Shown: piece after piece, positions 11,794-35,744 of the stretch
Layout of the letters: every line of letters begins with the position of its first letter
How positions within the stretch are numbered: the first letter of the stretch is position 1
NCBI GenBank assembly: GCA_964393465.1
Contig: CAYMTT010000002.1
Coordinates: forward strand, 1-47,510
Reading direction: 5' to 3'
Length of the DNA stretch: 47,510 bases
Origin: an uncultured Candidatus Saccharibacteria bacterium
Lineage (GTDB): Bacteria > Patescibacteriota > Minisyncoccia > Minisyncoccales > MHMH01
Position numbers and translations under genes: made by a program
Notes under the pieces: model-generated
The model's database searches: none
Told to the model about the DNA's origin: nothing
The model's input: only the letters and a program-made list of their open reading frames with translations

Positions 11794-11816
11794 TTGGTTT
11801 TTTTCACGTGAAACTT

Positions 11817-13953: not shown

Positions 13954-13954
13954 C

Positions 13955-18176: not shown

Positions 18177-20658
18177 AAAAAAGCAGTATTTCAGCAGGGA
18201 AGATATAAGGACGATGGCAAAGGATATCCAGAAAATCCAGGAGGGGGAAGCCGCCCAAAAAAGGGAAAAAATAGCAGGATTAAGGACCGATGAAGAAAAA
18301 AGACAGGAGAAAGAAAGGCAGCAAATGGCAGCAAAAGCGGCCCAAGAAAGGGAAAAATCCCAAAAAGAAATACTTGAACGTGAAGAGCATTTCAAAGAGC
18401 TCCAGCAAGAAAGAGAAAGAAAAAAAGCTCAAGAGGTCCCCCAGGAAGTGACCAAGGCCCAGAAAATGAAAAAGGTGCTTTCCGAGGCCCAGAAAAGAGA
18501 AGAAGAGGCCCGGAAGAAATTCATGGAAAGGGTAGCCGGTAAAAAACCCGAACCCGCAGAGCCTCCTCCCGTCCCCAAATCCAAACCCTCTGCTCCGGAG
18601 CCCCAAGAAGAACCGCAGGAGCGTCCCTCGGAGCCTCAAGAAGAACCCCGAGAAAAAGAAAGCTCCCGGGAAACCTTCCTCCAGAGAACGGGCAAAAAGC
18701 CCAAAGACGTCATCGAAGAAAAAAGGCAGGAGATAAAAGAGCAGCTGGAATTCCTTCCGACCGATAAAAAACCTCTTCAGGAAGAAAAAGAAAGGCTTTC
18801 CAAAGAGATTGAAAGCGTTAAAGCTTCCCTTCCGCCTGTGCTGGAAAGGGAAAACGAGATAAAGAAAAAGAAAGAAGAAATAGAAAGAAGGGAAATGGCC
18901 GCCACCACCATCGAACTCAAGCAGGAAATAGAAAGGGAAAGATGGGCGGTCGAAGAGGAAAGGAAAAAAACGGAAAACGAGCGCTGGAAGATAGAAGACA
19001 GAATCAAGGAAATAGAACAAAGGATAAAAGAGTGCGAATCCGGTTCAAAAGAGCTTTCCCAGAGGGAAAAAGAACTCAACGACGAACTGGAAAAACTGGA
19101 TCTCCAGGAGAAAAAAATAGATCTTCTGGAAGAAAAAAAGAAACTCCAGAATAAACTGGATAAAGTCCTTGAAGAGAAAGAAGGGCCTTCCGGAGAACTG
19201 GCCAAAATAAACCGGATGAAAAGCGAAGTGAGAGAAAAACTGGCCAAAATTTCCATAGACGAAAACGAAGTTGAACAAAGGATAAAAGAAATCGAAAAAC
19301 AAATAGAACAAGCCTCCGACGAGCAGAAAAAACGCCAACTGATAGAACAAAGAAGATCAGAAGAAGAAAGAAGAAGAAAAACGGAGAAAGAAAGGTGGCT
19401 GCTGGAAACCCAGAAAGAAAAACTGGCCGCCCAAGAAAAAGAAATCGGTTTCACCCATCAAAGGCTATCAAAAAAAGAAAAACAGCTCCAAAAAGAGATC
19501 GACGAACTCAATTCCTCGATCGAAGACTTGCCCGAATTGAATATCCCCGGATTTAAAGAAAAATTCGAGGGACCGGCGCCGGTTCCTCCCCCTGCTCCCG
19601 AACCTCCTTCTCAAGAGCCGGAACCTCAAGCTCAAAAAGAAAAAGAGTCTCCCCCCGAGCCCGAAAAGGAACCTGCTCCCGAGCCCGAAAAGGAACCTGC
19701 TCCCGAACCCGAAAAAGAGTTTGACCGGGAAGAGCAGGAAAGAAAAGCTTTTATGGAAAGGGTTTCTGCCAAAAGCCGGGAAGGATCTTCGCCAAAATCT
19801 CCCTCTTTGCCGGAAACTCCATCCGAAAAAAAGCCCCAAAAACCTTCCTTGCCAGATATAAAAAAGCCGGGAATTCCAGAAAAAGCCTTGAGAAAAATAA
19901 AAAAGGCCGCTCTTCCCAAACCGGTACTGGAAAAACCCACCAAGAGGGAAAAATTCTGGATTAGATTCATTCTAAGCTTTTTAATAATCGCCATTCTGGC
20001 GGGAATTGTCACTTTTTGGTATTGGTATTTAAACGTCAGGGAAAAGGCGGAAAAGGAGCCTCCTCCCCAGCAAACCGAAGAACAGCAAGAAGAAGAGCAA
20101 ACGCCTTCTCCTTTGGTCTTTATGGACGAATCCCACACGGTGGAGATTTCTGGCCAAGACCAGCTGGTGGACGCCGTAGCCTTGGCCTTCCAGCGCCAAT
20201 TCCAGGAAGAAAAATTCACCAGAATAATAATAGAAAACACCCAGGAAAACGCTTTTCCCGGACTGCGGGAATTCTTGCAGGCTTTCCAGGTTAAAACCCC
20301 CTCGGGATTGTTCGACAAAGTCTCCTCTGAAGACTTCACCCTGTTCGTTTACGCTTCCGAAGGAGAAAACCGGCTGGGCTGGGTGGCCGAAAAGACAGAC
20401 GGCGGCCTTTATTCCCTGATAGAAGCCTGGGAGCCGAACATGGAAGCCCAAATGGAAAACCTTTTCCAGGTTTTGGGTAAGGTGGGTCCTGCCTCGGATT
20501 CCGATTTTAAAGAATCTTCTCACCAAGGAGTAGCTTTCCGCTATATTTCCTTCCAAACCCCAAATATGGGAATCTGCTGGGCGGTAACCGAGGACTATTT
20601 CATTTTTACCACTTCGGGAGAAAGCATAATTAAAATTATAGATAAGATAACCGAGTAG
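18154..20658 (+). CDS. E/K-rich coiled-coil protein with a single TM helix and a ~190-aa C-terminal domain (834 aa)
   Basis: Listed ORF overlapping the pnp end by 23 nt (an alternative start is Met21 at 18214). About 600 aa are charged heptad-like sequence, followed by a P/E-rich repeat, the TM helix FWIRFILSFLIIAILAGIVTFWYWYL, and a globular tail. Confidence 0.7.
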   Translation: MANEEQNKKKQYFSREDIRTMAKDIQKIQEGEAAQKREKIAGLRTDEEKRQEKERQQMAAKAAQEREKSQKEILEREEHFKELQQERERKKAQEVPQEVTKAQKMKKVLSEAQKREEEARKKFMERVAGKKPEPAEPPPVPKSKPSAPEPQEEPQERPSEPQEEPREKESSRETFLQRTGKKPKDVIEEKRQEIKEQLEFLPTDKKPLQEEKERLSKEIESVKASLPPVLERENEIKKKKEEIERREMAATTIELKQEIERERWAVEEERKKTENERWKIEDRIKEIEQRIKECESGSKELSQREKELNDELEKLDLQEKKIDLLEEKKKLQNKLDKVLEEKEGPSGELAKINRMKSEVREKLAKISIDENEVEQRIKEIEKQIEQASDEQKKRQLIEQRRSEEERRRKTEKERWLLETQKEKLAAQEKEIGFTHQRLSKKEKQLQKEIDELNSSIEDLPELNIPGFKEKFEGPAPVPPPAPEPPSQEPEPQAQKEKESPPEPEKEPAPEPEKEPAPEPEKEFDREEQERKAFMERVSAKSREGSSPKSPSLPETPSEKKPQKPSLPDIKKPGIPEKALRKIKKAALPKPVLEKPTKREKFWIRFILSFLIIAILAGIVTFWYWYLNVREKAEKEPPPQQTEEQQEEEQTPSPLVFMDESHTVEISGQDQLVDAVALAFQRQFQEEKFTRIIIENTQENAFPGLREFLQAFQVKTPSGLFDKVSSEDFTLFVYASEGENRLGWVAEKTDGGLYSLIEAWEPNMEAQMENLFQVLGKVGPASDSDFKESSHQGVAFRYISFQTPNMGICWAVTEDYFIFTTSGESIIKIIDKITE
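19657..19719 (+). repeat. 24-nt tandem coding repeat (about 2.6 copies) encoding EPEKEPAP
   Basis: gagcccgaaaaggaacctgctccc occurs at 19657-19680 and 19681-19704, with a partial copy at 19705-19719. Confidence 0.85.
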
Positions 20659-21426: not shown

Positions 21427-22521
21427 TCAGTAAATATATCCTTTTATCAAAGGGTCCCCGACGGTCAATGTCCTATAATTCATCTTGCCCCAGCCAATGT
21501 AGTTCATTTCAGAAAACACCACTTTATTTCCTTTAACCTGCTCAACATAGCCTACGTGGCCGTAAAGCCTATGGCCTTCCAAAGAGATAACAGCTCCCGT
21601 CTGGGGGACGCAGTATCTTCCCGTGCAAGTGGAATAGCCCGCCGCCGCGGCGTTGGGGAGCCAGTCTTTGGCATTTCCCCAGGTAGGAACGGCTCTTTTC
21701 TGGGCCACCCACCAGGTGCACTGGCCGTAAGGGAAAGCGTGGCTTTTGCCGTAAAAATCGTTGGTGGAAAGACCCGACAGGGTTTCTGCAGTGGAAGATT
21801 GGCTTACAGAAGAATAAGAAGGCATTTGCCCTCCCGGTATAATCAATACTTCCCCTTCGAAAACGTCCCCGTTGCCGTTAATGTCATTGAAAGCGAATAC
21901 GTCTTTCGCTTCCGCCTTGTATTCTTCAGCTATAGTGCTAACTGTATCTCCCGATTCCACCAGATGCATGACTCCCGAGACGGGAAGTATAAGGAGTTTC
22001 TGACCCGGCCTTATCAAGGCGCTGTCAACGTCATTGGCCCAAATAATAGTGTCTATGGACACTCCGAATTCTACGGCTATGGACCATAAACTGTCTCCCT
22101 TTTTTATCTCATACTCTATAATCTCCCTTCTGGCCCCTTCAAAATCGGAACCTTCCATTAAAGCTCCCAGAACCTGGGGAGTGGCCATAATTGGAGGAGA
22201 AACCGAAGCCAAACTGTTATTTTGAACCAGACAAAGGTCGGGAGATTCCTTCACTTTGTCTTCCGGGAAAAGAAAAACCCTGCCTTGGCTGTCGGGGGTT
22301 TCGTAAAAAACGCTGTTGAAGTTTTCAGACGGCGCCGTACAAGCTGTCAGAAAAAAAAGAACGAGGGACGCCGCCCACAAATAAAGGAAGGGATCTTTTT
22401 TAGAGCCCTTTAAATGTTTCCATGCCTTGTAAATGGTATCTGGCAAGCTTTCCATAATTTTTTGCCCTTTTTTCAGGATATCACCGCCACCTTTAAAGTC
22501 AAGCGGTTTTTCCACACCCAC
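21427..22521 (-). CDS. secreted peptidoglycan hydrolase: two LysM domains plus a C-terminal CHAP domain (364 aa)
   Basis: LysM repeats (YEIKKGDSLWSIAVEFGVSIDTIIWAN; HLVESGDTVSTIAEEYKAEAKDVFAFN). CHAP Cys/His context (FPYGQCTWWVAQKR...GHVGYVEQV). The N-terminal TM/lipobox-like segment LFFLTAC suggests a possible alternative start at Met23 (22455). Confidence 0.85.
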   Translation of the reverse strand: MGVEKPLDFKGGGDILKKGQKIMESLPDTIYKAWKHLKGSKKDPFLYLWAASLVLFFLTACTAPSENFNSVFYETPDSQGRVFLFPEDKVKESPDLCLVQNNSLASVSPPIMATPQVLGALMEGSDFEGARREIIEYEIKKGDSLWSIAVEFGVSIDTIIWANDVDSALIRPGQKLLILPVSGVMHLVESGDTVSTIAEEYKAEAKDVFAFNDINGNGDVFEGEVLIIPGGQMPSYSSVSQSSTAETLSGLSTNDFYGKSHAFPYGQCTWWVAQKRAVPTWGNAKDWLPNAAAAGYSTCTGRYCVPQTGAVISLEGHRLYGHVGYVEQVKGNKVVFSEMNYIGWGKMNYRTLTVGDPLIKGYIY

Positions 22522-22552: not shown

Positions 22553-23365
22553 ATGGAAAACGTTCCCGAGATACTCGGATCCTATAAGATCAGGCCTTCC
22601 AAGATGCTGGGCCAAAACTTTTTAACCAGCAAGCAGGCTGTCAAAAAAATAGTCGGGTCGGCCGACCTTACAAAAACCGACACCGTTCTGGAAGTGGGCC
22701 CCGGCACGGGAAGCCTGACCTGGGAGCTCTGCCAGAAGGCGGGAAAAGTGATAGTTATCGAAAAAGACCAGAAAATGATAGAAGTGCTGAGAGAAAGGCT
22801 CCGAAGCTGGAACGTTGAAAACGTAACCATAATTAAAGAGGATATTTTAAAGTTCCAAATAAAAGAGCCCTGCAAGGTGGTGGGCAACCTGCCTTTCTAC
22901 CTGACTTCCCCTTTGATAAGGAAATTCCTTGAATCGAACCCCCGGCCTTCTTTGATGGTCTTGGTGGTCCAAAAAGAAGTTGCCCAGAGAATCTGCGCCA
23001 AGCCTCCGCGGATGAGCCTGCTGGCGGTCTCCGTCCAAATATATTCTTCTCCCAGAATAATTTCTTATCTTTCCAAAAAACTATTCTGGCCCCGGCCGGA
23101 AGTGGACGCGGCCGTCATTGAAATCGTGCCCAAGCCGAGTCGAATAGGGGAGAAAGATCTTTTTTTCAGAATAGCCAAAGCCGGTTTTTCCCAACCCAGA
23201 AAACAGCTTGCCAACAACCTGTCCAAGGGGCTGGGGCTCGAAAAAGATAAAATCAGCGCCTGGCTGAAAAAAAACGGAATAGATCCTTCCTGGAGAGCCG
23301 AAGTTTTAAGCTTGGAGCAGTGGATAAAATTAACAAAAAGCGCTCATTCTGTGCTACAATTATAA
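22553..23365 (+). CDS. rsmA: 16S rRNA (adenine1518/1519-N6)-dimethyltransferase (270 aa)
   Basis: LGQNFL, the SAM motif VLEVGPGTGSLT and NLPFYLTSP. Confidence 0.92.
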   Translation: MENVPEILGSYKIRPSKMLGQNFLTSKQAVKKIVGSADLTKTDTVLEVGPGTGSLTWELCQKAGKVIVIEKDQKMIEVLRERLRSWNVENVTIIKEDILKFQIKEPCKVVGNLPFYLTSPLIRKFLESNPRPSLMVLVVQKEVAQRICAKPPRMSLLAVSVQIYSSPRIISYLSKKLFWPRPEVDAAVIEIVPKPSRIGEKDLFFRIAKAGFSQPRKQLANNLSKGLGLEKDKISAWLKKNGIDPSWRAEVLSLEQWIKLTKSAHSVLQL

Positions 23366-23376
23366 TATAAAAACAT

Positions 23377-24753
23377 ATGGGCAAATCTTTTAAAAAAATA
23401 TTCCTCGGTTCGGCCAGAAAAATCATACTGCTTTTCTTCGGCCTGGGAGTTTCCGGAATCCTCCTTCTGCCCCAGCCGGCTTCCGCTCAGCTTTGGGACA
23501 AATTGCTGGGAGGCCTAACTTTCGTTCCCAACAACATCATAAATGTTTTCTTCCAGTTCGTTCTTTTGTTTTCTGCTGCTGCGGCCGCTCTGGCTGGAGC
23601 CATTTTGAAATGGGTCCTCAGCCCGGGATTCATCAGCTGGGGATATGTTGATAACAATCCGGTGGTCCAGATAGGCCTTGGCATCACCAAAAGTTTTGTC
23701 AATATGGGCCTAGTGCTCGTTTTAATATTCATAGCTTTCGGAATAATCCTGAGGCTGAAAGAATACGAAGCCAAAAAAACCCTGTCCACCTTGATAATCG
23801 TAGCTCTTTTGGTCAACTTCGCCCCGGTCATCTGCGGGTTCATAGTGGACGCTTCCAACATCGCCATGTATTACTTTACCGATAATCTGACCGGAATGCA
23901 GAATTTGACCGACCATCTAAAAAGCATGTCAGACAACATAGCCGCCAGCATAAGGACATTAAGGGCGACTGAACAGTTTGAAGAAATTTTCAGTACGGGA
24001 GTAATGATTGCTTTTACCTGGGCCACTTTCTTCATACTTATCATTTACGCCTTTTTGTTCCTTTTCAGGTATGTTGCCATTTGGACGGCCGTTATCCTGG
24101 CCCCTCTGGCTTTCGTTTCCCGCATTCTGCCTTCAACCAGTTTCTGGAATACTTGGTGGCGGCAGTTTACCCAGTGGTGCATAATAGGGATTCCGGCAGC
24201 CTTCTTTTTGTACCTGGGAGAAAGAATAGCCTCGGACCTGGCCCCGACGGCGCTAATCGAAGGCATGGGAGCAGAATACGGCTGGATGGACTCCATTCTG
24301 CCTCATTTTGTCACTCTGGCTTTTTTGATAATGGGGTTAATGGTCGCTTTCAGCACCAGCGCCTGGGGAGCCGGAAGAATCATGGAAGGGGGCAGAAAGA
24401 TAGGAAGGAATGGTCCCGCGTTTATATTTAAAACAGCTCCCAGGATTGCTAAAAAAGCTCCCAGGATTGCGTCCGGAATATCCAGAATAACCAAACCCTC
24501 TGAAACAAGCTACAAGCAAACTTACAAACAGGCTTACCAAGCAGCCAGACAAAGAGGATGGTCGAAAAGAAAAGCTACTATAGGAGCGACTAAAAAAACG
24601 GGGCAATCTTTCGCAAGAACCGCAAGAACAGTTGCTCCGCAGCCGCCGCCCCAGGGATATAAAAAATTTGTTTTGCAAGGACTTGATAAAGCTTGGAAAA
24701 CAACTTGGGATACTGTTGTCGTGCCCCCAAAAAAGAAAAATAAAAAAACCTAA
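23377..24753 (+). CDS. polytopic membrane protein, VirB6/TrbL-like by topology and context (458 aa)
   Basis: First gene of the secretion operon. It has a signal-like N-terminus (..PQPASAQ), at least 6 hydrophobic helices and a K/R-rich C-terminal tail. The family call is contextual and not motif-proven. Confidence 0.55.
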   Translation: MGKSFKKIFLGSARKIILLFFGLGVSGILLLPQPASAQLWDKLLGGLTFVPNNIINVFFQFVLLFSAAAAALAGAILKWVLSPGFISWGYVDNNPVVQIGLGITKSFVNMGLVLVLIFIAFGIILRLKEYEAKKTLSTLIIVALLVNFAPVICGFIVDASNIAMYYFTDNLTGMQNLTDHLKSMSDNIAASIRTLRATEQFEEIFSTGVMIAFTWATFFILIIYAFLFLFRYVAIWTAVILAPLAFVSRILPSTSFWNTWWRQFTQWCIIGIPAAFFLYLGERIASDLAPTALIEGMGAEYGWMDSILPHFVTLAFLIMGLMVAFSTSAWGAGRIMEGGRKIGRNGPAFIFKTAPRIAKKAPRIASGISRITKPSETSYKQTYKQAYQAARQRGWSKRKATIGATKKTGQSFARTARTVAPQPPPQGYKKFVLQGLDKAWKTTWDTVVVPPKKKNKKT

Positions 24754-24757
24754 AAAT

Positions 24758-25189
24758 ATGATTCAAAACCCCGAAATAAACGAAATTAAAAAATCTCTTT
24801 TGGGCAAGGTTCCAGAACCCGTCCTGGAATTGGCGGGATCGGAAGAAACGGCCTCCCAAATAGCTCAGATCTGCTCTGACAATGAAGTGGAAAGTAAAGA
24901 AGAGATAGAACAAACCGCCCTTCAAATAGGATTGGTGCTTTTGGGAAAACTGAATCCAGAAAAGTTGACCGACGCCTTGAAAAAAGAGGCGGATTTGGAT
25001 CCCCAGACCGCAGAAAGGGTTTACCTTGAAGTAAACAGGCTGATTTTCTCCCAAGTAAGGGGGGAATTGGCTAAAATGTACAAAAAAGAAGAAGAAGGCA
25101 AATCCAAGATAAGAAAGGACTCTCTTCCTCCGAAAGAAGAAACCCAAGGGTCGTCTAAAAACGACACTTACAGAGAACCTATCGAATAA
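24758..25189 (+). CDS. acidic soluble protein of unknown function (143 aa)
   Basis: Start set at MIQNPEINEIKK (ATG 24758, 4 nt after the upstream stop). The listed longer ORF would overlap the upstream gene. Confidence 0.6.
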   Translation: MIQNPEINEIKKSLLGKVPEPVLELAGSEETASQIAQICSDNEVESKEEIEQTALQIGLVLLGKLNPEKLTDALKKEADLDPQTAERVYLEVNRLIFSQVRGELAKMYKKEEEGKSKIRKDSLPPKEETQGSSKNDTYREPIE

Positions 25190-25599
25190 TGGATAATTTT
25201 ACGGTTCCAAAGTTTATAGAAGAAAAACCCAAGGTGGTCGGACCTTTAACTTTCCGGCAGTTCCTTTTTGTGGGAACGGCGGCGGGCATCTGCTTGATAC
25301 TGTATTTTACCGTTCCCCTGCACATATTCCTGATCTGCGGCGTAATCCTTCTAACCGGTTCTTTCTTTCTGGCTTTCGGCAAGGTTAACGGAATACCCAT
25401 TATAATGGTGATAAAGAATTTTTTTGTTTTTCTTTCCGCTCCCAAAATTTATCTTTGGAAAAGAAAAGTGCTCCCTCCAAAATTCGTGGAGAAAGCCGCC
25501 AAACCCCCCGAAAAAGAAGATAAAAAAGATGTCCCCAGGATAGCGGAAAAAAGCCAATTAAGAGATCTTTCTACGAGAATTGAAACGGGAGTAAAATAA
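25189..25599 (+). CDS. PrgI/VirB3-like two-TM protein (136 aa)
   Basis: FTVPKFIEEKPKVVGPLTFRQFLFVG is followed by two TM helices, and the gene lies immediately upstream of VirB4-like genes. The ATG overlaps the upstream TAA (TAATG). Confidence 0.6.
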   Translation: MDNFTVPKFIEEKPKVVGPLTFRQFLFVGTAAGICLILYFTVPLHIFLICGVILLTGSFFLAFGKVNGIPIIMVIKNFFVFLSAPKIYLWKRKVLPPKFVEKAAKPPEKEDKKDVPRIAEKSQLRDLSTRIETGVK

Positions 25600-25603
25600 A
25601 AAT

Positions 25604-26242
25604 ATGAAACAACTAACCACACAATCTTTTCTGGAAATAGATCAAATAAGGGAAGGCGTCATCGTCTTGAAAGACAACTCCTTGAAAGGAGCGCTGATGG
25701 CTTCCTCTTTGAACTTCGCTTTGAAATCGGAAGAAGAGCAGACTGCCATAGTCTACCAATTCCAGAATTTCTTAAACTCTTTGGATTTCTCCTGCCAGGT
25801 GGTGATTCAGTCCAGAAAACTTAATATGACAGGATATCTGGAAAAACTGAAGGAGCTGGAAAACAAGCAGCAAAACGAGCTTCTGAAAATACAAACCAAA
25901 GAATACCACAATTTTATAAAAGAGCTGGTGGCCACGGGCGACATCATGAGCAAGTCTTTTTATGTGGTGGTTCCTTTTTACCCTCTCCAAACATGGAAAA
26001 AGGCTTCCAAAAATATATTCAAATCTTCCAAACAGCAAAAACTGACAGAGAACGATTTTCAAAGGGGAAAACAGCAGCTCTGGCAGAGAATGGAGTTCGT
26101 AGCCCTGGGCCTCAGGAGATGCGGCGTCCAGGGAGTGCCCTTGACCACCCCCGAATTGATAGAGCTTCTGTGGGGGCTCCACCATCCAAAAAGAGCCGAA
26201 GTGGGATATTATCCAGAGGTTCCTCCTGAATTATCAAGATAA
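25604..26242 (+). CDS. hypothetical protein resembling a free-standing VirB4 N-terminal domain (212 aa)
   Basis: Pattern FLEIDQIREGVIVLKDNSLKGALMASSLNFALKSEEEQTAIVYQFQNFLNSLDFSCQVVIQSRKLN parallels the N-region of the next gene (IAPSSIEIKSSWLKLGERFSKSFFIFSYPRYLNTAWFSPIINLDIPMDISLFIHP). Confidence 0.55.
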   Translation: MKQLTTQSFLEIDQIREGVIVLKDNSLKGALMASSLNFALKSEEEQTAIVYQFQNFLNSLDFSCQVVIQSRKLNMTGYLEKLKELENKQQNELLKIQTKEYHNFIKELVATGDIMSKSFYVVVPFYPLQTWKKASKNIFKSSKQQKLTENDFQRGKQQLWQRMEFVALGLRRCGVQGVPLTTPELIELLWGLHHPKRAEVGYYPEVPPELSR

Positions 26243-26251
26243 AAAATTTCT

Positions 26252-28045
26252 ATGAAACTTCCTTTTTTCGGCAAAAAAAAGAAAAAACCGCTTCCCGGAG
26301 ATCAGCTTTTCGAAGGGGAAGCCATGAGAGCGGCAGACATTATCGCCCCTTCTTCCATTGAAATTAAATCTTCCTGGCTCAAACTGGGAGAAAGGTTTTC
26401 AAAATCCTTTTTCATCTTCTCTTATCCCAGATATCTTAACACGGCCTGGTTTTCCCCTATAATCAATCTGGATATTCCCATGGATATTTCCCTGTTCATC
26501 CATCCAATAGAAGCGGGCTTGATTTTAAAGCAATTGAGAAGAAGGATAACCGAAATACAAGCAGAAATGATGGAAAGGGAAGAAAAGGGAATGATCAGGG
26601 ATCCGGCCTTGGAAACGGCCCACAACGACGTCGAAGAACTCAGAGACAGATTGCAAACCGCCCAGGAAAGAATGTTCAAAATAGGAATATATCTAACGGT
26701 ATACGCCGACACCGAAAAAGAGCTCGACAATATGGAAAACACCCTCCGCTCGATTCTGGAGGCCAAGCTGATCTATATAAAGCCGGCTCTCTACCAGCAG
26801 AAAGAGGGATTCATATCCACTTCTCCCTACTGCATGGATCAGCTGGGAGTTCACGCTTCCATGAACACCGGGCCCTTGTCCTCCACTTTTCCTTTTGTGT
26901 CTTTTGATTTAAGCTCCAACGAAGGCATACTTTACGGGGTCAACCAGCATAACAACTCTTTGGTTCTTTTTGACAGATTCAGTCTGGAAAACGCCAATAT
27001 GACCGTTTTCGGGGTGGCCGGATCCGGCAAAAGCTACGCCTTGAAACTGGAAATACTGCGCTCCCTGATGCTGGGAACAGACACTGTAATTGTCGACCCG
27101 GAAAACGAATATAAGTTTTTGTCCGACGCCGTGGGCGGCTCTTTTTTCAAAATATCTCTGGGCAGCCCCAGCCATATCAACCCTTTTGATTTGCCTATCC
27201 CCAGAGAGGATGAAAAAGCGGAAGACGTTTTGAGGTCGAACATAATAAACCTGGTGGGCTTAATGAGGCTCATGCTGGGAGGGCTGACCGCAGAAGAAGA
27301 CGCCATTATGGACAGAGCGCTGACCGAAACCTATGCTGCCAAAGACATTACTCCCGAATCCGACTTTTCCAAAGTGAGCCCTCCTTTGATGTCCGACTTG
27401 GAATCGGTTCTGAACACCATGGAAGGGGCCGAATCCCTGGTCAGAAGAGTAAGAAAATTCACCAAGGGGAGCTATGCCAACTTTTTCAACCAGCATTCCA
27501 ACGTAAACATGAAAAACAGCCTGGTGGTTTTCGGCATAAGGGATATGGAAGAAGGCCTAAGGCCCATAGCAATGTACATCATCACCCGCTACATTTGGAA
27601 CCAAATACGCTCCGAGCTCAAAAAGAGGATATTCGTGGTCGACGAAGCTTGGTGGCTGATGCATTCAGAAGACGGAGCCTCTTTCCTTTTCGGAATAGTC
27701 AAAAGGGCCAGAAAATACTGGCTGGGGGTCACCACCATCACCCAGGACGTCAACGACTTTATGAGATCCGACTACGGAAAACCGATAATCACAAACTCCG
27801 CGCTTTCTCTTTTAATGAAACAAAGCCCGGCGACCATAAACACCGTCCAGGAAACTTTCAATCTCACCGACTGGGAAAAAGACTTGCTTTTGGGATCTGC
27901 GGTGGGGGAGGGAGTGTTTTTTGCCGGCCAGAAGCATGTTTCGGTCAAGGTTACAGCTTCTTACACAGAAGACCAATTCATCACCACGGCCCCCGAAGAG
28001 GTGGCCAAAATTAAAAAAACGAGGAAAGAACAACCTTCCTCTTAA
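26252..28045 (+). CDS. VirB4/TraC/TrbE-family secretion ATPase (597 aa)
   Basis: Walker A GVAGSGKSYALK, Walker B RIFVVDEAWWLM, and the downstream motif GVTTITQDVNDF. Confidence 0.85.
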   Translation: MKLPFFGKKKKKPLPGDQLFEGEAMRAADIIAPSSIEIKSSWLKLGERFSKSFFIFSYPRYLNTAWFSPIINLDIPMDISLFIHPIEAGLILKQLRRRITEIQAEMMEREEKGMIRDPALETAHNDVEELRDRLQTAQERMFKIGIYLTVYADTEKELDNMENTLRSILEAKLIYIKPALYQQKEGFISTSPYCMDQLGVHASMNTGPLSSTFPFVSFDLSSNEGILYGVNQHNNSLVLFDRFSLENANMTVFGVAGSGKSYALKLEILRSLMLGTDTVIVDPENEYKFLSDAVGGSFFKISLGSPSHINPFDLPIPREDEKAEDVLRSNIINLVGLMRLMLGGLTAEEDAIMDRALTETYAAKDITPESDFSKVSPPLMSDLESVLNTMEGAESLVRRVRKFTKGSYANFFNQHSNVNMKNSLVVFGIRDMEEGLRPIAMYIITRYIWNQIRSELKKRIFVVDEAWWLMHSEDGASFLFGIVKRARKYWLGVTTITQDVNDFMRSDYGKPIITNSALSLLMKQSPATINTVQETFNLTDWEKDLLLGSAVGEGVFFAGQKHVSVKVTASYTEDQFITTAPEEVAKIKKTRKEQPSS

Positions 28046-28051
28046 ACTTTT

Positions 28052-28453
28052 ATGGCCGAAGAAACCGGAGGAAACGCCAATTTATTAGGACCGGAAGCCG
28101 TTCTTATGCTCACTTTAGCCTGCATGATAGACGGAGGCGAACTGGTAATAGAGCATATTCCGGGAGTCGGACAGATAATCTCGGTGGCCCTGGATATTTT
28201 CGCTTTCCTGTTTTTCGGCGTTTGGATGGTTTTTAGAAATAGCAGTGGAATCCGGGTTCCGAGCCGAACCAAAGCCAAAGCCACCAAACTGGCAAAAAGA
28301 ATCAAATGGCTGAGGCCTTTCTTCTTTGGAACCAAAAAAATCAAATGGCTGAGGCCTCTCTGCTTCGGAATAGAACTGATTCCCATATTCAGCAGCTATC
28401 TGCCTTTTTGGATTTTGATCGTCTTTTTGGAATTAAAAAACACCGAAACTTAA
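28052..28453 (+). CDS. small membrane protein with an internal 13-aa duplication (133 aa)
   Basis: Listed ORF with hydrophobic helices. KRIKWLRPFFFGT / KKIKWLRPLCFGI is a tandem duplication. Confidence 0.6.
   Translation: MAEETGGNANLLGPEAVLMLTLACMIDGGELVIEHIPGVGQIISVALDIFAFLFFGVWMVFRNSSGIRVPSRTKAKATKLAKRIKWLRPFFFGTKKIKWLRPLCFGIELIPIFSSYLPFWILIVFLELKNTET
28301..28357 (+). repeat. 18-nt direct repeat at 39-nt spacing inside the CDS
   Basis: atcaaatggctgaggcct occurs at 28301-28318 and 28340-28357. Confidence 0.85.
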
Positions 28454-30493
28454 ATGATAAGATTGAAAGAAATCCGAAAACTCTTTCTGCCTCTGCTTAT
28501 TTTTTTCTTGCTGGCCGGGGCAGGTTCCGTTTTGGCTCAAAGAGATCTGGAAGTGGATTATCCCTCCCTGCCCGGCGTGGAAATGTCTCTGAATACCGTT
28601 GAAGGGACTTCTCTGCCAGACTACGTAAAATACATATTCAACTTCGCCATAGCTCTTGCCGGAATCGCCGCCCTGGTCGCTTTGGTTATGGGAGGAATGA
28701 AATATCTTACCTCTGCCGGGGATCCTGCCAAAATGCAAGAGGCCAAAAGTCGAATTCTGGCCGCTTTCCTGGGAATAATAATCCTTTTCAGCTCATATTT
28801 CATCTTCACCACCATAAATCCAGAGCTGGTGGTTTTCGAGGTATCCGGACTGCCCGATATAAGCATTATAGAAAAATACGTGCCCTTTGAACTTCCATCT
28901 ATAAACACCTCTTTTAATGTTGAAATACCGGTGGAAACCAGGTTCAAGGGCATAGAAGAACAGGATTTTGGAGTTTTCGAGCCCAACCGCCTGGAAAAAA
29001 TCAGAGATTTTTCCATTGCGGCTGAAGAAACGGCCATAGAAACCAAAGGAATATCCAACGAACTGACAAGCCTCACTTTTCAATGCAAATGCAACTACGG
29101 ATGCAATCCTCCCGCCGGCTGCGTCCAACCTTTCTGTGAAGGAAATTGCGAATGGGTGTGTAATGAATATGGGGAAGAATGCGTTTGTGAAGGCTGCTGC
29201 GATGCGGTAAAAAAAGACACGAGTTCGGGAGCAGAAAACGGAGAGGAAAGCCAAGAAGGAGAAGTTCAAGGAGAGGTTAAGGGATGTTCCGGCGGCAGCT
29301 GTCCGATAGGCGAAGAGGAAGAGGAGGAGGAAGAAGAGGAGGAGGAAGAGGGAGGATATATGGTGGAATGCAGCAGCGACCCTTGTTGTTTGGTCAGGTC
29401 CCAAATGTCCAGCAAAATGGCAGAAAACAGAATCAAAGTTACTCAATTTGAAGAATTGATAAAACTTTTACACAGGGAAAGAACGGAAATGGAAATGGAG
29501 GCTGACCGCCTGGAAAAAGCCATGGAAATAATGCAAGAATGCCCCATTTATGGAGTCTTGAGCAGGGATAACTTCATCAGCTTGAAAGATTATTACGATC
29601 AGCACAATTGGATACTGAAAAAAATCATATACTGGGAAGAAATTCCTTATCTTTTGCCGGGTTCTTACGCCGATGTTTATTGTCCGGTGGGCGGCAATAT
29701 TTCCGAATATGTTCCAGAAAACGAAGTTACAGAAGAAACTTTAGACGAGTCCACTGAAGAATTCCAAAAATACCTGGAAGAAGGCGGAGGCTACGAAGAA
29801 GTAACCGTGGATTGCAATATACCCATACCCTTCGGGGAAGTGGTTGATTTCGGGCTCAAGGTGGCTTATGAATTCATAGAACTGGTCAAAGAACTCATAG
29901 AATTGCAAACGGAAATGATAGAAACTGTAGCCCAACTGCACGAGGCCGTTTCCGGGTGCACCTCGATGAACTGCACGGCTGAATGCGGTTGCACTCTATG
30001 TGAAGAATGCGGATGCGGAGGATTTTGCACGGGAACTCCCTGCCCCACATCGGAAATTCTTAAGGCCAACGATAAAATAGAAAAATTACAAGAACAAATA
30101 ACAGAAAAAAGAGAAGAAATAGAGGAATACATAGACGTGGAAATACCAGATTATCTTGAAGGGCCATTTACCGAAATGGCCAACAGATTCCATAATTGCC
30201 AAGCGGAGCCCGAACAATTGGAGCCCGGATATCTTTTGATGGACTGCCAACGGAGCATGGGAGGCATAGGGCCCGACGGCAAAGTCCTAGGAATTGAAGG
30301 AGGAACCCAAACCTGGGAAACCCAGGCCTGCAAATGCCAGGAATTTTCCTCTTGCAGAAGGGATTTCCACGACATTTTAGAAACTTATACCTTGGGGGGC
30401 TGCGACAATCCCACTACGGTGCTCGAATACAGATGTGAACATATAGAAAATTGCTACGAATACAATTTCTTTTGTTGCAGAATAAAAGATTAA
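28454..30493 (+). CDS. pilin-module fusion protein with two Cys-knot clusters, helical segments and a poly-Glu tract (679 aa)
   Basis: N-terminus: signal peptide, LEVDYPSLPG, LPDYVKYIFNF, helix, GGMKYLTSAGDPAKMQEAKSR, helix, TTINPELVVFE. C-terminus: CKCNYGCNPPAGCVQPFCEGNCEWVCNEYGEECVCEGCC and CTSMNCTAECGCTLCEECGCGGFCTGTPCP. Confidence 0.7.
   Translation: MIRLKEIRKLFLPLLIFFLLAGAGSVLAQRDLEVDYPSLPGVEMSLNTVEGTSLPDYVKYIFNFAIALAGIAALVALVMGGMKYLTSAGDPAKMQEAKSRILAAFLGIIILFSSYFIFTTINPELVVFEVSGLPDISIIEKYVPFELPSINTSFNVEIPVETRFKGIEEQDFGVFEPNRLEKIRDFSIAAEETAIETKGISNELTSLTFQCKCNYGCNPPAGCVQPFCEGNCEWVCNEYGEECVCEGCCDAVKKDTSSGAENGEESQEGEVQGEVKGCSGGSCPIGEEEEEEEEEEEEEGGYMVECSSDPCCLVRSQMSSKMAENRIKVTQFEELIKLLHRERTEMEMEADRLEKAMEIMQECPIYGVLSRDNFISLKDYYDQHNWILKKIIYWEEIPYLLPGSYADVYCPVGGNISEYVPENEVTEETLDESTEEFQKYLEEGGGYEEVTVDCNIPIPFGEVVDFGLKVAYEFIELVKELIELQTEMIETVAQLHEAVSGCTSMNCTAECGCTLCEECGCGGFCTGTPCPTSEILKANDKIEKLQEQITEKREEIEEYIDVEIPDYLEGPFTEMANRFHNCQAEPEQLEPGYLLMDCQRSMGGIGPDGKVLGIEGGTQTWETQACKCQEFSSCRRDFHDILETYTLGGCDNPTTVLEYRCEHIENCYEYNFFCCRIKD
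29312..29350 (+). repeat. GAR codon tract encoding 13 consecutive Glu
   Basis: gaagaggaagaggaggaggaagaagaggaggaggaagag, in frame within 28454-30493. Confidence 0.9.
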
Positions 30494-30494
30494 A

Positions 30495-31577
30495 ATGAAA
30501 GGCTTCAAATTAAAAATATTTTTGGGACTGATAATAACGATGCTCTTTTTCGCCTCGCCGATTTTCGGCCAGGAAAGACAATTGGAGCTCGATTATCCGG
30601 AAATAGAGGGTTTCTCTCCTCAAACTGTTTCCACCGGACTTCCAGACTATGTAAAATACCTGTTTAACTTCTCTTTGGGCATAGCCGCTTTGGTTTGTTT
30701 TATCGTTCTCGTTTATGCCGGCTTCCGCTGGGCGACTTCCATGGGAAATCCGGCAAAGAAACTCGATGCCAAAGACAGGGTTTTTTCCGCCTTCCTGGGG
30801 CTGACCATTTTGGTTTTTTCTTATTTGATTTTCACCACCATAAATCCAGAACTGGTTATTTTCGAAATGGCAGAGATAGAAAAAGTTCAAGAAGCCCCTC
30901 CTTCTCCTTCTCCGACAGAAAAAATGTCCATCGATCCTTTAACCAGAATCGTGAAACTGGCTCGCGATGTCAAGGGATCCGCTTATGATTTAAGCAAGGC
31001 CGGCTCCGTCCTTTATGGGGCGGTCGAAGCATGCAGCTGCGATTACGTGCGGTCTTTCTGCGACTGCGGAGGATTATCATGTATCCCCAGATTTTGTTAT
31101 GGGTATCCCTGTCTCGACAGAGACAGCATGGTGGAACATCAGAAAAAACTGGTGGAAATGATAGACCAAATTCTGTATTATAAAAACAGGGTGAACATTG
31201 AAAGGCAGCATATGGGCCCGGAGTTGGAAAGATTCCAGTTCTGGGGCACTTTGAACGAAAGCCAAAGCAGGGACCTTGTCGACAAAATGGAATCTTTGCC
31301 CGAAAAAATAATAGAAATGTCCAGAGCCGGCCAAAATCTTGTTTGGCTTCCCGAAACTTGCTCCGCTAGAAACTGCGATGCCGGCTGTACCCAAGAAAGT
31401 TGCCACGATACTCCCGGCTGCCGCTCCTTGGTTTGCACCGGAGAGAATCCTTGCAATCTTCACAAACCCTGCATGTCCGCCGAAGCGGGCGAAGATGAAA
31501 CCGACGTCGAATTTATGAAAAGAATGTACCAAGAGATATCCGATATTTGCGACGCCATAATTAACATTCTGGAATAA
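30495..31577 (+). CDS. pilin-module fusion protein with a Cys-rich C-terminal domain (360 aa)
   Basis: It has the same N-terminal module (LELDYPEIEG, LPDYVKYLFNF, GFRWATSMGNPAKKLDAKDR, TTINPELVIFE). C-terminus: CSCDYVRSFCDCGGLSCIPRFCYGYPC and CSARNCDAGCTQESCHDTPGCRSLVCTGENPC. Confidence 0.7.
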   Translation: MKGFKLKIFLGLIITMLFFASPIFGQERQLELDYPEIEGFSPQTVSTGLPDYVKYLFNFSLGIAALVCFIVLVYAGFRWATSMGNPAKKLDAKDRVFSAFLGLTILVFSYLIFTTINPELVIFEMAEIEKVQEAPPSPSPTEKMSIDPLTRIVKLARDVKGSAYDLSKAGSVLYGAVEACSCDYVRSFCDCGGLSCIPRFCYGYPCLDRDSMVEHQKKLVEMIDQILYYKNRVNIERQHMGPELERFQFWGTLNESQSRDLVDKMESLPEKIIEMSRAGQNLVWLPETCSARNCDAGCTQESCHDTPGCRSLVCTGENPCNLHKPCMSAEAGEDETDVEFMKRMYQEISDICDAIINILE

Positions 31578-31578
31578 T

Positions 31579-32625
31579 ATGCTTAAAAAAAGAATTTTAT
31601 CTATATTTTTTCTGGCCGGATTGCTGCTTTCTGCAAGCGGAGGTTTTTTATCGGCGCAAGACAGGCCCCTGGAGCTCGATTATCCGACCATACCCGGCGT
31701 AACCATCGTTCCAAAAAACGTTGAAGAGACCTCCTTGCCAGAATACATAGACTATATCTTCAATCTGGCTCTCTGGGTGGTGGGATTAATCGCTTTCGGA
31801 GCCCTGGTTTACGGAGGATTCAGATATATAACTTCCATGGGGAATCCGGCTTCGATGGGAGACGCCAAAAGCCAGATTTTCGCTGGAATTCTCGGTTTAA
31901 TAATTCTTGTGTCTTCTTATCTTGTCTTGACGACTATAAACCCTCAGCTTGTGGTTTTCGACGTGGAAGAAATACAAAATGTCTCCACCGTCGGACCGGG
32001 CGTCTGGCTCTGTAATGCCTCCATTGATAATATTGAAAGTTTTATGGAAAATCCAAACAACTTCGAGTCCGAAGAAAGAGAGCGCCTGACTCAATTGGTG
32101 CAAAATCATTGTTTCAGACCCTCGACCAAAACCTTGATTCCCGATCGTATAAAAAACGGCCTGGAAAAGGCCTATGTGGTGGGGGATTATGGGGCTGTCC
32201 TGCACGAGGGACCGGAACCTTTCAAAGGCGAATGCCAGGTTGTCGCCCAGAGCCAGTCGGTGGGAACTGCCAACTCGGTGACTCCTTTCCTTATAAACGA
32301 AACGGCTTTTGCTGGGAACGGGGTTACCTTATATGAAAACAGGGATTTTAATCTCGACGAGCCGGGAAAGGAAGCCAATTACACTTCCGACGCCAGCAGC
32401 GGCATGGAGCCCTGCCAGTCAATAAAAATAAACGAAGAAAACCAATGGGTAGCCGTAGCTTTCAAAGACAGGGGCTTCCAAGGAGAGTGTGAAGTTTTCG
32501 ACAGAAGTGATAGGGATTTAAACGACGATTACGTGGGCAGATTCTGCATCCCCGGTCTTGCTTTCTGGGAGAGGCAAACCTGCATATATTCTCTGAAGGT
32601 ATTTAAAGGGTTGCTCTTGGATTAA
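31579..32625 (+). CDS. pilin-module fusion protein with a different, possibly beta/gamma-crystallin-like C-terminal domain (348 aa)
   Basis: It has the same N-terminal module (LELDYPTIPG, LPEYIDYIFNL, GFRYITSMGNPASMGDAKSQ, TTINPQLVVFD). The C-terminus has repeated VTLYENRDFN / AVAFKDRGFQGECEVFDRSDRDL-type motifs. Confidence 0.7.
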   Translation: MLKKRILSIFFLAGLLLSASGGFLSAQDRPLELDYPTIPGVTIVPKNVEETSLPEYIDYIFNLALWVVGLIAFGALVYGGFRYITSMGNPASMGDAKSQIFAGILGLIILVSSYLVLTTINPQLVVFDVEEIQNVSTVGPGVWLCNASIDNIESFMENPNNFESEERERLTQLVQNHCFRPSTKTLIPDRIKNGLEKAYVVGDYGAVLHEGPEPFKGECQVVAQSQSVGTANSVTPFLINETAFAGNGVTLYENRDFNLDEPGKEANYTSDASSGMEPCQSIKINEENQWVAVAFKDRGFQGECEVFDRSDRDLNDDYVGRFCIPGLAFWERQTCIYSLKVFKGLLLD

Positions 32626-34129: not shown

Positions 34130-34132
34130 AAA

Positions 34133-34258
34133 TCAAACAGTTAACCTCTGCCTTTTTTTGCTTCTCCTCCGGTTCAAAACCTTGCTGTTTTTCCGGCGAG
34201 ATCTGAACCCGTGCACCTTCTTTCTTTTCCTTTTTTTGGGGTTATGTGTGAATGACAT
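34133..34258 (-). CDS. rpmH: 50S ribosomal protein bL34 (41 aa; not in the ORF track)
   Basis: Hand-translated: MSFTHNPKKRKRKKVHGFRSRRKNSKVLNRRRSKKRQRLTV. The KRKR..HGFR...RR..GR..L.V pattern is typical, and the stop is 3 nt before the rnpA ATG. Confidence 0.9.
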   Translation of the reverse strand: MSFTHNPKKRKRKKVHGFRSRRKNSKVLNRRRSKKRQRLTV

Positions 34259-34338
34259 ATGTTTAAATATTAACAATTTTTCCCCATTTTTTCAACACCT
34301 CTTTCTCTTTTCGGTTCATTTTGTTTTTATTTGACATG

Positions 34339-34347
34339 TGCTATAAT
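34339..34347 (+). promoter_or_regulatory. extended -10 promoter element for dnaA
   Basis: TGcTATAAT (34339-34347), 26 nt before the dnaA ATG. The -35 is weak. Confidence 0.45.
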
Positions 34348-34373
34348 AGCTCTTGTAACCAAAAAATTCTCGT

Positions 34374-35744
34374 ATGAACAAAGAAGAACTGTGGCAAGCG
34401 CTTCTTGCTCAAGTCCAATTGAATATCTCCAAAGCCAATTTCGCCACTTGGTTTAAAAACACGGAAATAATATCCAAAAAAGAGGGGCAGGTGATAATTT
34501 CTGTGCCGAATAATTTTTCCAAAGAATGGCTGGAAAACAAGTATAACAAGTCTATTTCCAAAATCCTCCACAGTTTGGACGACGATATAAAAGAGATTAA
34601 ATACTGCGTGGCTCAGCCGGGCGCCAGTCCTTCTTTTTCGTCAACGGCCACTTCGACCAAAAAAAGGTCTCAAAATCAAATTTTCTCCCAGCTAGAATTC
34701 CAAGAGTTTAAAATAGACAAAGAAACTAATTTAAACCCCCGCTATACTTTCGACAATTTCATAGTGGGGCCTTTTAATGAATTGCCCCATGCGGCCGCCT
34801 GGGCGATAGTAAAAAATCCCGGTTTCGTTTACAACCCCTTGTTTATATATGGAGGAGTCGGACTGGGAAAAACCCATCTTTTGCAGGCGATAGGAAACGG
34901 GGTCATTAAAAAATTCCCTCAAAAAAAGATAAAATACGTTTCTTCCGAAAAACTTATCTCGGGAATAGTAAATTCCATTCAAAACCGCAACATAGAAAAA
35001 CTAAAGTCTTTATACAAAGACACGGACGTTTTGATAGTAGACGACATTCAATTTTTAGCCGGCAAAGAAAAGACCCAAGAAGAATTCTTTCACATATTCA
35101 ACAACCTATACGACAAAAACAAACAAATAATTTTATCTTCTGACCGCTCTCCCAAAGCCATTTCTTCTTTAGAAGAAAGACTGAGATCTCGTTTCGAGGG
35201 AGGAATGATAGCCGACATCGGTTTTCCGGACGTAGAAACGAGAATAGCTATTTTAAACTCCAAATCTCAGGAAAAAAACATCAATCTTTCCGGTGAAATA
35301 ATAGAATATATAGCCAACAATATCCAGAGGAACATAAGAGAATTGGAAGGGGCTTTAAATAGAATAATAGCTTACCAGAGACTTAATAATTCCACTCCCT
35401 CCCTGGAAACCGTCAAAACTTTATTGAAAAACCTTGTTTTTTCTCCGAAAAACGTGGTTACCCCCGAAAAAATAATAAAATCTGTTGCGTTTTTTTACGA
35501 CATTAAAGAAAGGGATCTTTTGGACGTTTCCAGAAAAAAAGAGATAGTTAAACCTCGCCAGGTATCGATGTATCTTTTAAGGGAAGAATTAAAAAGCTCT
35601 TTTCCTTTTATTGGCAGAAAGTTCGGAGGAAAAGATCACACTACCGCCATTCACGCCTACAATAAAATTTCCAAAGGGGTGGATTCCGACGAAAATTTAA
35701 ACAAGGAAATAGAGTTGATAAAAGAACAGATAAGCCGTTTATAA
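34374..35744 (+). CDS. dnaA: chromosomal replication initiator DnaA (456 aa)
   Basis: Walker A GGVGLGKTHLL, Walker B VLIVDDIQFL, sensor/box VII regions, and the C-terminal DNA-binding helix ...GGKDHTTAIHAYNKI. Confidence 0.95.
   Translation: MNKEELWQALLAQVQLNISKANFATWFKNTEIISKKEGQVIISVPNNFSKEWLENKYNKSISKILHSLDDDIKEIKYCVAQPGASPSFSSTATSTKKRSQNQIFSQLEFQEFKIDKETNLNPRYTFDNFIVGPFNELPHAAAWAIVKNPGFVYNPLFIYGGVGLGKTHLLQAIGNGVIKKFPQKKIKYVSSEKLISGIVNSIQNRNIEKLKSLYKDTDVLIVDDIQFLAGKEKTQEEFFHIFNNLYDKNKQIILSSDRSPKAISSLEERLRSRFEGGMIADIGFPDVETRIAILNSKSQEKNINLSGEIIEYIANNIQRNIRELEGALNRIIAYQRLNNSTPSLETVKTLLKNLVFSPKNVVTPEKIIKSVAFFYDIKERDLLDVSRKKEIVKPRQVSMYLLREELKSSFPFIGRKFGGKDHTTAIHAYNKISKGVDSDENLNKEIELIKEQISRL

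Follow-up and report, generated by a model that had tools for sequence, protein, structure and literature searches.

An origin-proximal, probably non-conjugative type IV secretion locus with fused pilins in a Candidatus Nealsonbacteria-like genome

Introduction

What does a type IV secretion system (T4SS) do in a bacterium that keeps it next to its replication genes and, in the surrounding sequence, without the genes that conjugation would call for? This question is raised by nine abutting open reading frames (ORFs), here called g1 to g9, which lie on the forward strand at positions 23377-32625 of a 47,510-nucleotide stretch of contig CAYMTT010000002.1 (the window). Judged by its genes, the genome would be that of a Candidatus Nealsonbacteria-like bacterium within the class Paceibacteria. 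A first, sequence-only reading of the window had proposed that the locus encodes a non-conjugative, chromosomal pilus or cell-contact apparatus and that its owner is probably an episymbiont, which agrees with the published view of such systems (PMC12102498, PMC10633639, PMC12857230). The analysis presented here leads us to consider it quite probable that the locus is a vertically inherited, origin-proximal Patescibacteria T4SS, probably non-conjugative, that serves episymbiosis through a surface structure of pilins assembled by VirB4. Its proteins point by homology to a cytoplasmic-membrane translocon formed by a VirB6/TrbL-like channel protein and PrgI/VirB3, a split VirB4 motor and three Sec-dependent VirB2-type pilin modules.

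Systems of this kind have been described before. Quinonero-Coronel et al. (2025; PMC12102498) defined a Patescibacteria clade of VirB4 related to MPF_FATA, the machinery of monoderm conjugation, with TrsD as the commonest partner of VirB4, accompanied by PrgI/VirB3, VirB6 and VirB2-like arrays. In the same study, VirB1-like LysM hydrolases of Paceibacteria were associated with virB4, and virB4 was found near dnaA, dnaN, rnpA and ksgA, the last being a frequent neighbour. Transposon sequencing has shown that Southlakia epibionticum cannot do without its T4SS and the accompanying pilin array, in a cluster where neither a coupling protein nor a relaxase could be recognised (Wang et al. 2023; PMC10633639). 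A review (PMC12857230) and a perspective (PMC11665869) name effector delivery or uptake as proposed functions. In archaea-parasitising Patescibacteria, the unknown genes with the highest expression include those of T4SS pilins (PMC10936435), and Ca. Nealsonbacteria have been seen attached to Methanothrix (bioRxiv 10.1101/2022.04.20.488981).

Operon structure and conservation

From g1 to g9 (Table 1), the ORFs follow each other with gaps of 4, -1, 4, 9, 6, 0, 1 and 1 nt, the negative value being a TAATG overlap at 25189; all coordinates and spacings given in the sequence-only reading were confirmed. For g2, the ORF opens mechanically at TTG 24632, and an alignment with 23 orthologues favours ATG 24758 as the start. 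A spacer of 11 nt separates the end of the KsgA/RsmA gene from g1. Since no forward-strand terminator-like site above the shuffle expectation interrupts the nine-gene run, g1-g9 are likely co-transcribed as a single transcript, with KsgA/RsmA as the probable first gene; promoter and terminator counts as such are near chance (29 terminator-like sites on both strands, against 21.4 +/- 4.9 by shuffling). Most of the operon's start codons are preceded by A-rich spacers (e.g. AAAAATATG, TTAAAATG; window 23350-31595) that contain no purine-rich Shine-Dalgarno run, which suggests that the operon is translated by coupling or by Shine-Dalgarno-independent initiation.

Table 1. Features of the secretion locus and of its surroundings, in window coordinates (TM, transmembrane).
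Feature	Position	Strand	Length	Description
g1	23377-24753	+	458 aa	VirB6/TrbL-like polytopic membrane protein (indirect assignment), K/R-rich C-terminal tail
g2	24758-25189	+	143 aa	Acidic soluble protein of an orphan family, conserved C-terminal D-x-Y-R-E-P motif
g3	25189-25599	+	136 aa	PrgI/VirB3-family protein, two TM segments
g4	25604-26242	+	212 aa	TrsD-like, putative separately encoded equivalent of the VirB4 N-terminal domain
g5	26252-28045	+	597 aa	VirB4-family ATPase, CD1110/PrgJ type, without an N-domain of its own
g6	28052-28453	+	133 aa	Small membrane protein with three TM segments, orphan family; encoded after virB4 and before the pilins
g7	28454-30493	+	679 aa	VirB2-type hairpin and acidic domain of 545 aa that has a poly-Glu run and 38 cysteines
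g8	30495-31577	+	360 aa	VirB2-type hairpin and 235-aa domain, two conserved-cysteine clusters around a predicted helical segment
g9	31579-32625	+	348 aa	VirB2-type hairpin and predicted two-domain beta-gamma-crystallin-fold tail
Stand-alone pilin	13482-13877	+	131 aa	VirB2/TrbC pilin, 7 cysteines; only short pilin in the window
Hydrolase	21427-22521	-		LysM-LysM-CHAP peptidoglycan hydrolase, N-terminal TM segment
KsgA/RsmA	22553-23365	+		rRNA dimethyltransferase, Pfam RrnaAD 180 bits
Secretion ATPase	43696-44991	-	431 aa	GspE/PilB type

VirB4 homologues of g5 number in the thousands, and the closest, at 75-84% identity, carry the names Ca. Nealsonbacteria or Parcubacteria. For comparison we used 80 related loci (L001-L080), mostly from metagenome-assembled genomes of Nealsonbacteria/Paceibacteria and picked by VirB4 similarity. 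The order KsgA > g1 > g2 > g3 > g4 > g5 > (g6 > pilins) > Jag < YidC < RnpA <, followed by DnaA > DnaN >, recurs among them, and this recurrence of gene set and order in 80 genomes is far beyond chance. Within the core, g4 adjoins g5 in 77 of the 80 loci and PrgI adjoins g4/g5 in 72. The pilin modules lie within the T4SS locus in 57 of 80; they are missing beside virB4 in some loci and stand upstream of g1 in others (L003, L004, L022, L023, L042, L044, L075).

Median identities are 70% for VirB4, 65.5% for DnaA, 61% for TrsD, 41% for PrgI, 34% for VirB6 and 26-30% for the pilin fusions, so that conservation declines from the cytoplasmic components to those at the surface. The locus appears to be under strong purifying selection. 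Its housekeeping flanks, native GC content and conserved synteny, together with the lack of attachment (att) repeats and of any plasmid match in our searches (see Genomic context), argue for a chromosomal, vertically inherited locus.

Translocon and motor

The ATPase g5, with the Walker A motif GVAGSGKS and the Walker B motif FVVDEAWW, matches the NCBIfam family conju_CD1110 with 374 bits (cutoff 325), Pfam P-loop_TraG with 88 bits, Pfam AAA_10 with 45 bits and the VirB4 structure 4ag5 with E=6e-37. The match to CD1110 covers profile positions 183-733 of 752, and an hhalign comparison with PrgJ of the Enterococcus faecalis plasmid pCF10 covers residues 227-776 (probability 99.6), so the first ~180-226 positions of the family are missing from g5. 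The preceding gene, g4, has matches to just this part: positions 103-262 of 894 in NCBIfam VirB4_plasma (E=1e-7), positions 7-119 of 752 in CD1110 (E=7e-6) and the N-terminal part of Pfam TraC_F_IV (E=0.07), besides a match to NCBIfam TrsD (E=5e-4; 20 bits against a 200-bit cutoff). As g4 matches only the N-terminal part of VirB4 and g5 starts after it, the two look like a split VirB4 in the TrsD arrangement. The assignment of g4 to the N-domain comes from the NCBIfam profiles alone, with the place of the gene and the length of the protein in agreement; an hhalign comparison of the g4 family with the single PrgJ sequence gave no meaningful match.

On the translocon side, g3 matches Pfam PrgI above the cutoff (34.4 bits, cutoff 27; E=3e-8). 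For g1, the evidence comes from its relatives and its structure model: Pfam TrbL/VirB6 is matched by nine of 32 orthologues (best E=4e-6), the best specific PDB matches of its AlphaFold2 (AF2) model (predicted local distance difference test, pLDDT, 73.8) in Foldseek are R388 TrwI/VirB6 (8rtd_L, 8rt9_F, 7o3v_F), and among all pCF10 Prg/Pcf proteins its family alignment finds PrgH as the best, weak partner (hhalign, E=0.009). Thus all four roles proposed in the sequence-only reading could be traced to known families, those of g3 and g5 by above-cutoff matches, that of g4 by sub-cutoff ones and that of g1 through orthologues and model; the motifs quoted there, FTVPKFIEEKPKVVGPLTFRQFLF in g3 and GVAGSGKS and FVVDEAWWLM in g5, are all found in the translations.

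In eight of the 32 g1 orthologues a C-terminal zinc ribbon stands at the place of the K/R-rich tail, so the predicted cytoplasmic tail of this VirB6-like protein appears to be a variable module. A 21-nt tandem repeat (24429-24470) lies inside the tail of the window protein.

The locus would descend from monoderm conjugation machinery (MPF_FATA), since the score of g5 exceeds the cutoff of CD1110, and since it is in Bacillota and Actinomycetota that the closest plasmid-borne VirB4 proteins (29-34% identity) are found.

Pilin-module fusions

Each of the three last genes encodes a signal peptide, two TM helices and a Pfam T4SS_pilin module above the cutoff (37.8 bits in g7, 29.7 in g8, 37.2 in g9), which bears out the earlier description of g7-g9 as pilin-module fusions. 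The modules are mutually 49-52% identical, and the tails that follow them are unrelated to each other. By the standard topology rule for a signal peptide and two TM helices, the tails should face outward.

The tail of g9 is, by profile and model, a paired-domain beta-gamma-crystallin fold. Of 16 orthologues, two match Pfam Crystall (E=6.5e-6) and one matches Inhibitor_I36, and in the PDB the family profile finds nothing but beta-gamma-crystallins (E=1e-3 for 3hzb and Protein S). The AF2 model places the hairpin helices (residues 55-85 and 90-119) after the signal peptide and gives the tail a pLDDT of 85-90 over about residues 140-240, with lower values beyond. Foldseek searches with this model returned gamma-crystallins as the top 16 matches (2g98 E=2e-4, TM 0.56) and proteins of the beta/gamma-crystallin fold as all of the top 33, and the model aligns with whole gamma-crystallins over about 180 columns. 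The Greek-key signature Y/F-x-x-x-x-F/Y-x-G is visible in the sequence as FKDRGFQG.

The tails of g7 and g8 had no match to Pfam or PDB profiles, where the pilin module alone was matched, and both are marked by conserved cysteines. Full-length orthologues of g7 occur in about 10 loci, and more than 20 cysteines are kept in at least 90% of them. Among 12 orthologues of g8, 13 cysteines are invariant and one more is kept in at least 90%; a homology search with g8 found only three full-length relatives.

Directly after the signal peptide, g7-g9 and their orthologues share the motif R-x-L-E-[LIV]-x-Y-P-x-[IL]-P-G, whose L, E and P are invariant in 16 sequences of the g9 type. It may be a processing or assembly site.

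Fusion pilins seem to be the rule in this lineage. By a simple start-codon rule, which makes the lengths approximate, 106 of 121 pilin-module ORFs in the related loci exceed 300 aa, some reaching 1,000-1,477 aa, and four have at most 160 aa. The one short pilin of the window lies 10 kb upstream of the operon, between the genes for tRNA-Arg (13334-13407) and tRNA-Lys (13881-13954). It matches Pfam TrbC (29.6 bits, cutoff 27.9) and T4SS_pilin (31.2 bits) and is 24-25% identical to the modules of g7 and g9. It is a plausible candidate for the major pilin.

Two orphan families

Two proteins of the core belong to conserved families that PMC12102498 does not describe. Wherever it was found, which is the case in 47 of the 80 loci, g2 sits just upstream of prgI. 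An exhaustive phmmer search retrieved 564 clusters of this family among 1.84 billion representative proteins. No credible match to g2 was found in Pfam, NCBIfam, PDB or pCF10, and a Pfam scan of 45 of the clusters and a PDB profile search returned noise.

The second family, g6, directly follows virB4 in 19 related loci and had no match in Pfam, NCBIfam or pCF10. In an alignment of 17 orthologues, the residues D, D, W, R, E, P, P, W, V and E are invariant. The window protein has a 13-aa insertion missing in all 17, which results from a 39-nt tandem duplication at 28295-28370 (KIKWLRP... repeated). Since hhalign comparisons of both family alignments with all Prg/Pcf proteins of pCF10 found nothing, g2 and g6 are not homologues of PrgF, PrgG, PrgL or PrgM at that sensitivity.

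Genomic context

The locus is embedded in housekeeping and type IV pilus genes. Upstream lie the genes for H+-PPase, RNase Y, ClpP, trigger factor, NusA, CCA-adding enzyme, PNPase, DksA and KsgA, and downstream those for Jag, YidC, RnpA, DnaA, DnaN, PBP1, TyrRS, RuvC, YebC, RuvB and the GspE/PilB-type ATPase. KsgA is a conserved neighbour in 26 of the related loci. The GC content ranges from 0.41 to 0.47 across the operon, compared with 0.44-0.50 for the flanks. We found no att-like flanking repeats, the only direct repeats being those between the pilin modules or short ones inside single genes, and no plasmid match at the DNA level. An integrative and conjugative element (ICE) was rejected on composition, synteny and the lack of an integrase and of att sites, and a plasmid origin on the lack of a DNA match and on the nearest plasmid VirB4 being 34% identical.

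When all plausible genes in the window (ORFs of at least 100 aa, for relaxase) were scanned with Pfam, none matched a VirD4/TraG, relaxase, integrase or VirB8/9/10 family, and no window protein matched the bitopic, NTF2-fold VirB8/PrgL/TraM by sequence (Pfam, NCBIfam). The earlier statement that the window contains no coupling protein, relaxase, integrase or VirB8-11 therefore holds in Pfam and NCBIfam scans. The one ATPase of the T2SSE superfamily in the window, at 43696-44991, scores 61 bits against VirB11, 457 bits against NCBIfam GspE and 444 bits against PilB, and lies 11 kb away among unrelated genes; it was rejected as VirB11 and is presumably the motor of a type IV pilus or type II secretion system, outside the T4SS.

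Divergent from KsgA, at a distance of 31 bp, stands the LysM-CHAP hydrolase (Pfam LysM 73 bits, CHAP 56 bits), which had been proposed as the wall-opening partner of the system. Its divergent position next to KsgA is conserved in 22 related loci; DksA and KsgA beside it show the same degree of synteny. Its best NCBIfam match is the CHAP domain of the cell-division hydrolase PcsB (E=1e-17), so that it could equally be a division enzyme. We consider it a candidate for either role, a wall-opening partner of the VirB1/PrgK type or a cell-division hydrolase.

Downstream, the rnpA-dnaA spacer, dnaA and dnaN (34130-37016) have a GC content of 0.32-0.38, compared to 0.44-0.50 elsewhere in the window. 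A chimeric assembly at this point was rejected, as relatives share both the gene order and the dip (dnaA in L003 and L004); the low GC content appears to characterise the origin region in this lineage.

Three further observations concern genes apart from the locus. An 834-aa protein (18154-20658, forward strand) is very rich in E, K and P, with PEPEKE-like repeats, a single predicted TM segment at about two-thirds of its length and a C-terminal part that is globular; it has no Pfam or NCBIfam match. The tRNA-Pro gene at 11723-11793 (reverse strand) overlaps the 5' end of a 500-aa ORF on the same strand (10305-11807), a surface-type protein with weak fn3/Big-like matches, whose true start codon must therefore lie further downstream. 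Between yebC and ruvB, 41882-42523 (reverse strand) encodes a 213-aa lamin-tail protein (Pfam LTD 48 bits).

Function of the system

As its VirB4 belongs to a conjugation family, CD1110, the locus could still be a working conjugative or DNA-exporting T4SS, with the genes for its coupling protein and relaxase at other chromosomal sites. Coupling-protein genes are indeed often apart from virB4: VirD4-like genes are present in 2,918 Patescibacteria genomes, usually far from virB4 (PMC12102498). Yet the same study found relaxases in only 103 genomes, without special T4SS features there, and S. epibionticum can dispense with its VirD4 homologue, though not with its T4SS, according to the account that PMC12102498 gives of PMC10633639. 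With no relaxase, coupling protein or integrase within 47.5 kb, and a locus that is fixed by oriC in 80 genomes at housekeeping-level conservation, unlike a mobile element, we regard this reading as quite improbable. The lack of relaxase, coupling protein and VirB8 in the window would suit a decaying remnant of an integrated conjugative element that has lost its function, but nine intact and tightly packed ORFs of native GC content, a VirB4 that is 65-80% identical across 80 genomes, matching or exceeding DnaA, and the lack of integrase and att repeats make this explanation extremely hard to sustain.

Transport in the opposite direction, by an import machine of the ComB or Ced kind that brings in DNA, nucleotides or further building blocks from the host, has more to commend it, as Patescibacteria lack nucleotide synthesis and the T4SS has been proposed as an uptake route because comEC is dispensable and the T4SS essential (PMC11665869). 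Moreover, g5 weakly matches the archaeal DNA importer CedB; however, 50 bits against a cutoff of 700 reflect only the shared ATPase fold, no ComB- or Ced-specific partner was found in Pfam or NCBIfam, and sequence does not tell which way a substrate moves; we consider import unlikely. Somewhat less unlikely, to our mind, is that g7-g9 never form a pilus and are surface adhesins anchored in the membrane by their hairpins, with the VirB3/4/6 core in a separate role. The prevalence of pilin-module ORFs above 300 aa speaks for this, with bulky tails that seem hard to pack into a VirB2 helix, as do the shifting position of the pilin genes relative to the core and their absence beside virB4 in some loci. 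Against it stand the T4SS_pilin signature above cutoff, the retention of the modules in most T4SS loci, the essentiality of the S. epibionticum pilin array together with its T4SS (PMC10633639) and modules that are half identical while their tails have fully diverged, which argues for selection on an assembly interface.

Several points weigh against the reading we favour, that of a probably non-conjugative T4SS with a VirB4-assembled surface structure. The assignment of g1 to VirB6/TrbL is indirect: the window protein itself has no Pfam or NCBIfam match, and its structural matches to R388 TrwI/VirB6 (probability 1.0, TM 0.57-0.60) have weak E-values of 0.05-0.2. The NCBIfam matches of g4 all lie under the curated cutoffs. 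With no VirB8-like protein found, the channel model is incomplete; VirB8 is, however, rarely found in Patescibacteria (PMC12102498) and thus not defining for this T4SS clade. A filament of subunits with tails of 200-550 residues is sterically doubtful, and the link of the 131-aa pilin to the operon is a guess. In 49 of 51 loci the conservation of VirB4 exceeds that of DnaA, in a comparison biased by the choice of loci for their VirB4 similarity. The absence of coupling protein and relaxase holds for the 47.5-kb window, and most Patescibacteria have VirD4-like genes elsewhere (PMC12102498). Finally, the transcript, the pilus, the substrate and the essentiality of the system are all inferred for this organism.

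With these reservations, a T4SS of the favoured kind might work as follows. VirB4 would extract the pilin hairpins from the membrane and assemble them into a surface structure; the crystallin pair of g9 and the cysteine-rich domains of g7 and g8 would lie outside the cell by membrane topology. The stand-alone pilin could be the bulk subunit, with g7-g9 as minor or tip subunits that contact the host, and the LysM-CHAP hydrolase might open the cell wall; g2, in the cytoplasm, and g6, in the membrane, would be lineage-specific accessory subunits. By analogy with S. epibionticum, the system most likely supports the episymbiotic lifestyle through host contact and the export or import of a substrate, and it is probably non-conjugative.

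The system is not of a new kind, having been published already (PMC12102498, PMC10633639), and the novelty of the locus is low, since its repertoire, its relation to MPF_FATA, the missing relaxase and the position by dnaA, ksgA and rnpA are all in earlier work. What we can add is modest, namely the fusions of pilins to crystallin and cysteine-rich domains and the g2 and g6 families, which we did not find described in PMC12102498. The window nevertheless offers a clean, complete Paceibacteria example with its apparently split VirB4, two orphan subunits and pilin fusions, of a T4SS that is essential in the one species tested, has no conjugation hallmarks and is the only monoderm T4SS with VirB2-like pilins. 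As nearly all T4SS pilins of the lineage combine a VirB2-type hairpin with a large, presumably host-facing ectodomain, we tentatively raise the possibility of a VirB4-driven device that displays or injects modular adhesins, perhaps against archaeal hosts of the Methanothrix type, with g2 and g6 as lineage-specific assembly factors; this contrasts with the picture of a thin, conjugative-type pilus. The fusion tails, for example as antibody targets or as lectin-like domains, provide handles for testing pilus formation and host contact.

Comparison with known systems

The closest counterpart is the Paceibacteria-type T4SS of PMC12102498, from which the locus shows no essential difference. Both have VirB4, PrgI/VirB3, VirB6 and an array of VirB2-like pilins, with g4 as the putative TrsD of the window and its LysM-CHAP enzyme as a candidate for the nearby VirB1-like hydrolase, neither has a relaxase or coupling protein near virB4, and both occupy a chromosomal site by dnaA, dnaN, rnpA and ksgA. 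The text of PMC12102498 has no mention of fused pilins, of crystallin or cysteine-rich tails or of the g2 and g6 families.

Two plasmid systems share parts of the core. In pCF10, the prototype of MPF_FATA, the order PrgH(VirB6)-PrgI(VirB3)-PrgJ(VirB4) corresponds to g1-(g2)-g3-(g4)g5, and PrgJ and g5 belong to the same NCBIfam family, CD1110. Only pCF10 has the coupling protein PcfC, the relaxase PcfG, PrgK (VirB1), the VirB8-like PrgL and LPXTG adhesins, and it is without pilins; only the window has an apparently split VirB4, pilins, and g2 and g6, which are without a Prg counterpart. The Trs system of pGO1/pSK41, with TrsD and TrsE, encodes a small, separate TrsD, related to the N-domain of VirB4, beside the VirB4 ATPase, an arrangement that g4 and g5 would share. 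It differs in that pGO1, a conjugative plasmid, encodes a relaxase and a coupling protein but no pilins, as summarised in PMC12102498.

The ICEs of Mycoplasma resemble the locus in pairing a VirB2-like protein with a VirB4 of MPF_FATA in a wall-less or monoderm lineage. The modules of g7-g9 weakly match the pilin-like family Mbov_0395 (E 4e-7 to 1e-3), and the Mbov_0397 VirB4 profile is matched in its N-terminal part by g4 and in its C-terminal part by g5, with all scores under the equivalog cutoffs. Unlike the window locus, which is fixed in the chromosome, the ICEs of Mycoplasma move and have a DDE recombinase of their own.

With S. epibionticum ML1 (SEML1_0006-0019), the locus shares a T4SS of the Gram-positive type and a pilin array within the cluster. 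The two organisms differ in class, S. epibionticum being a member of the Saccharimonadia with an actinobacterial host, and in their pilins, which are six sequence-divergent VirB2-like proteins there (PMC12857230) and three fusions of 348-679 aa here. They also differ in the accompanying hydrolases: peptidase and lysozyme genes follow virB4 in S. epibionticum, whereas in the window the LysM-CHAP gene lies upstream on the opposite strand. The low numbers of the SEML1 locus tags suggest that the T4SS of S. epibionticum lies near the origin as well, as in the window.

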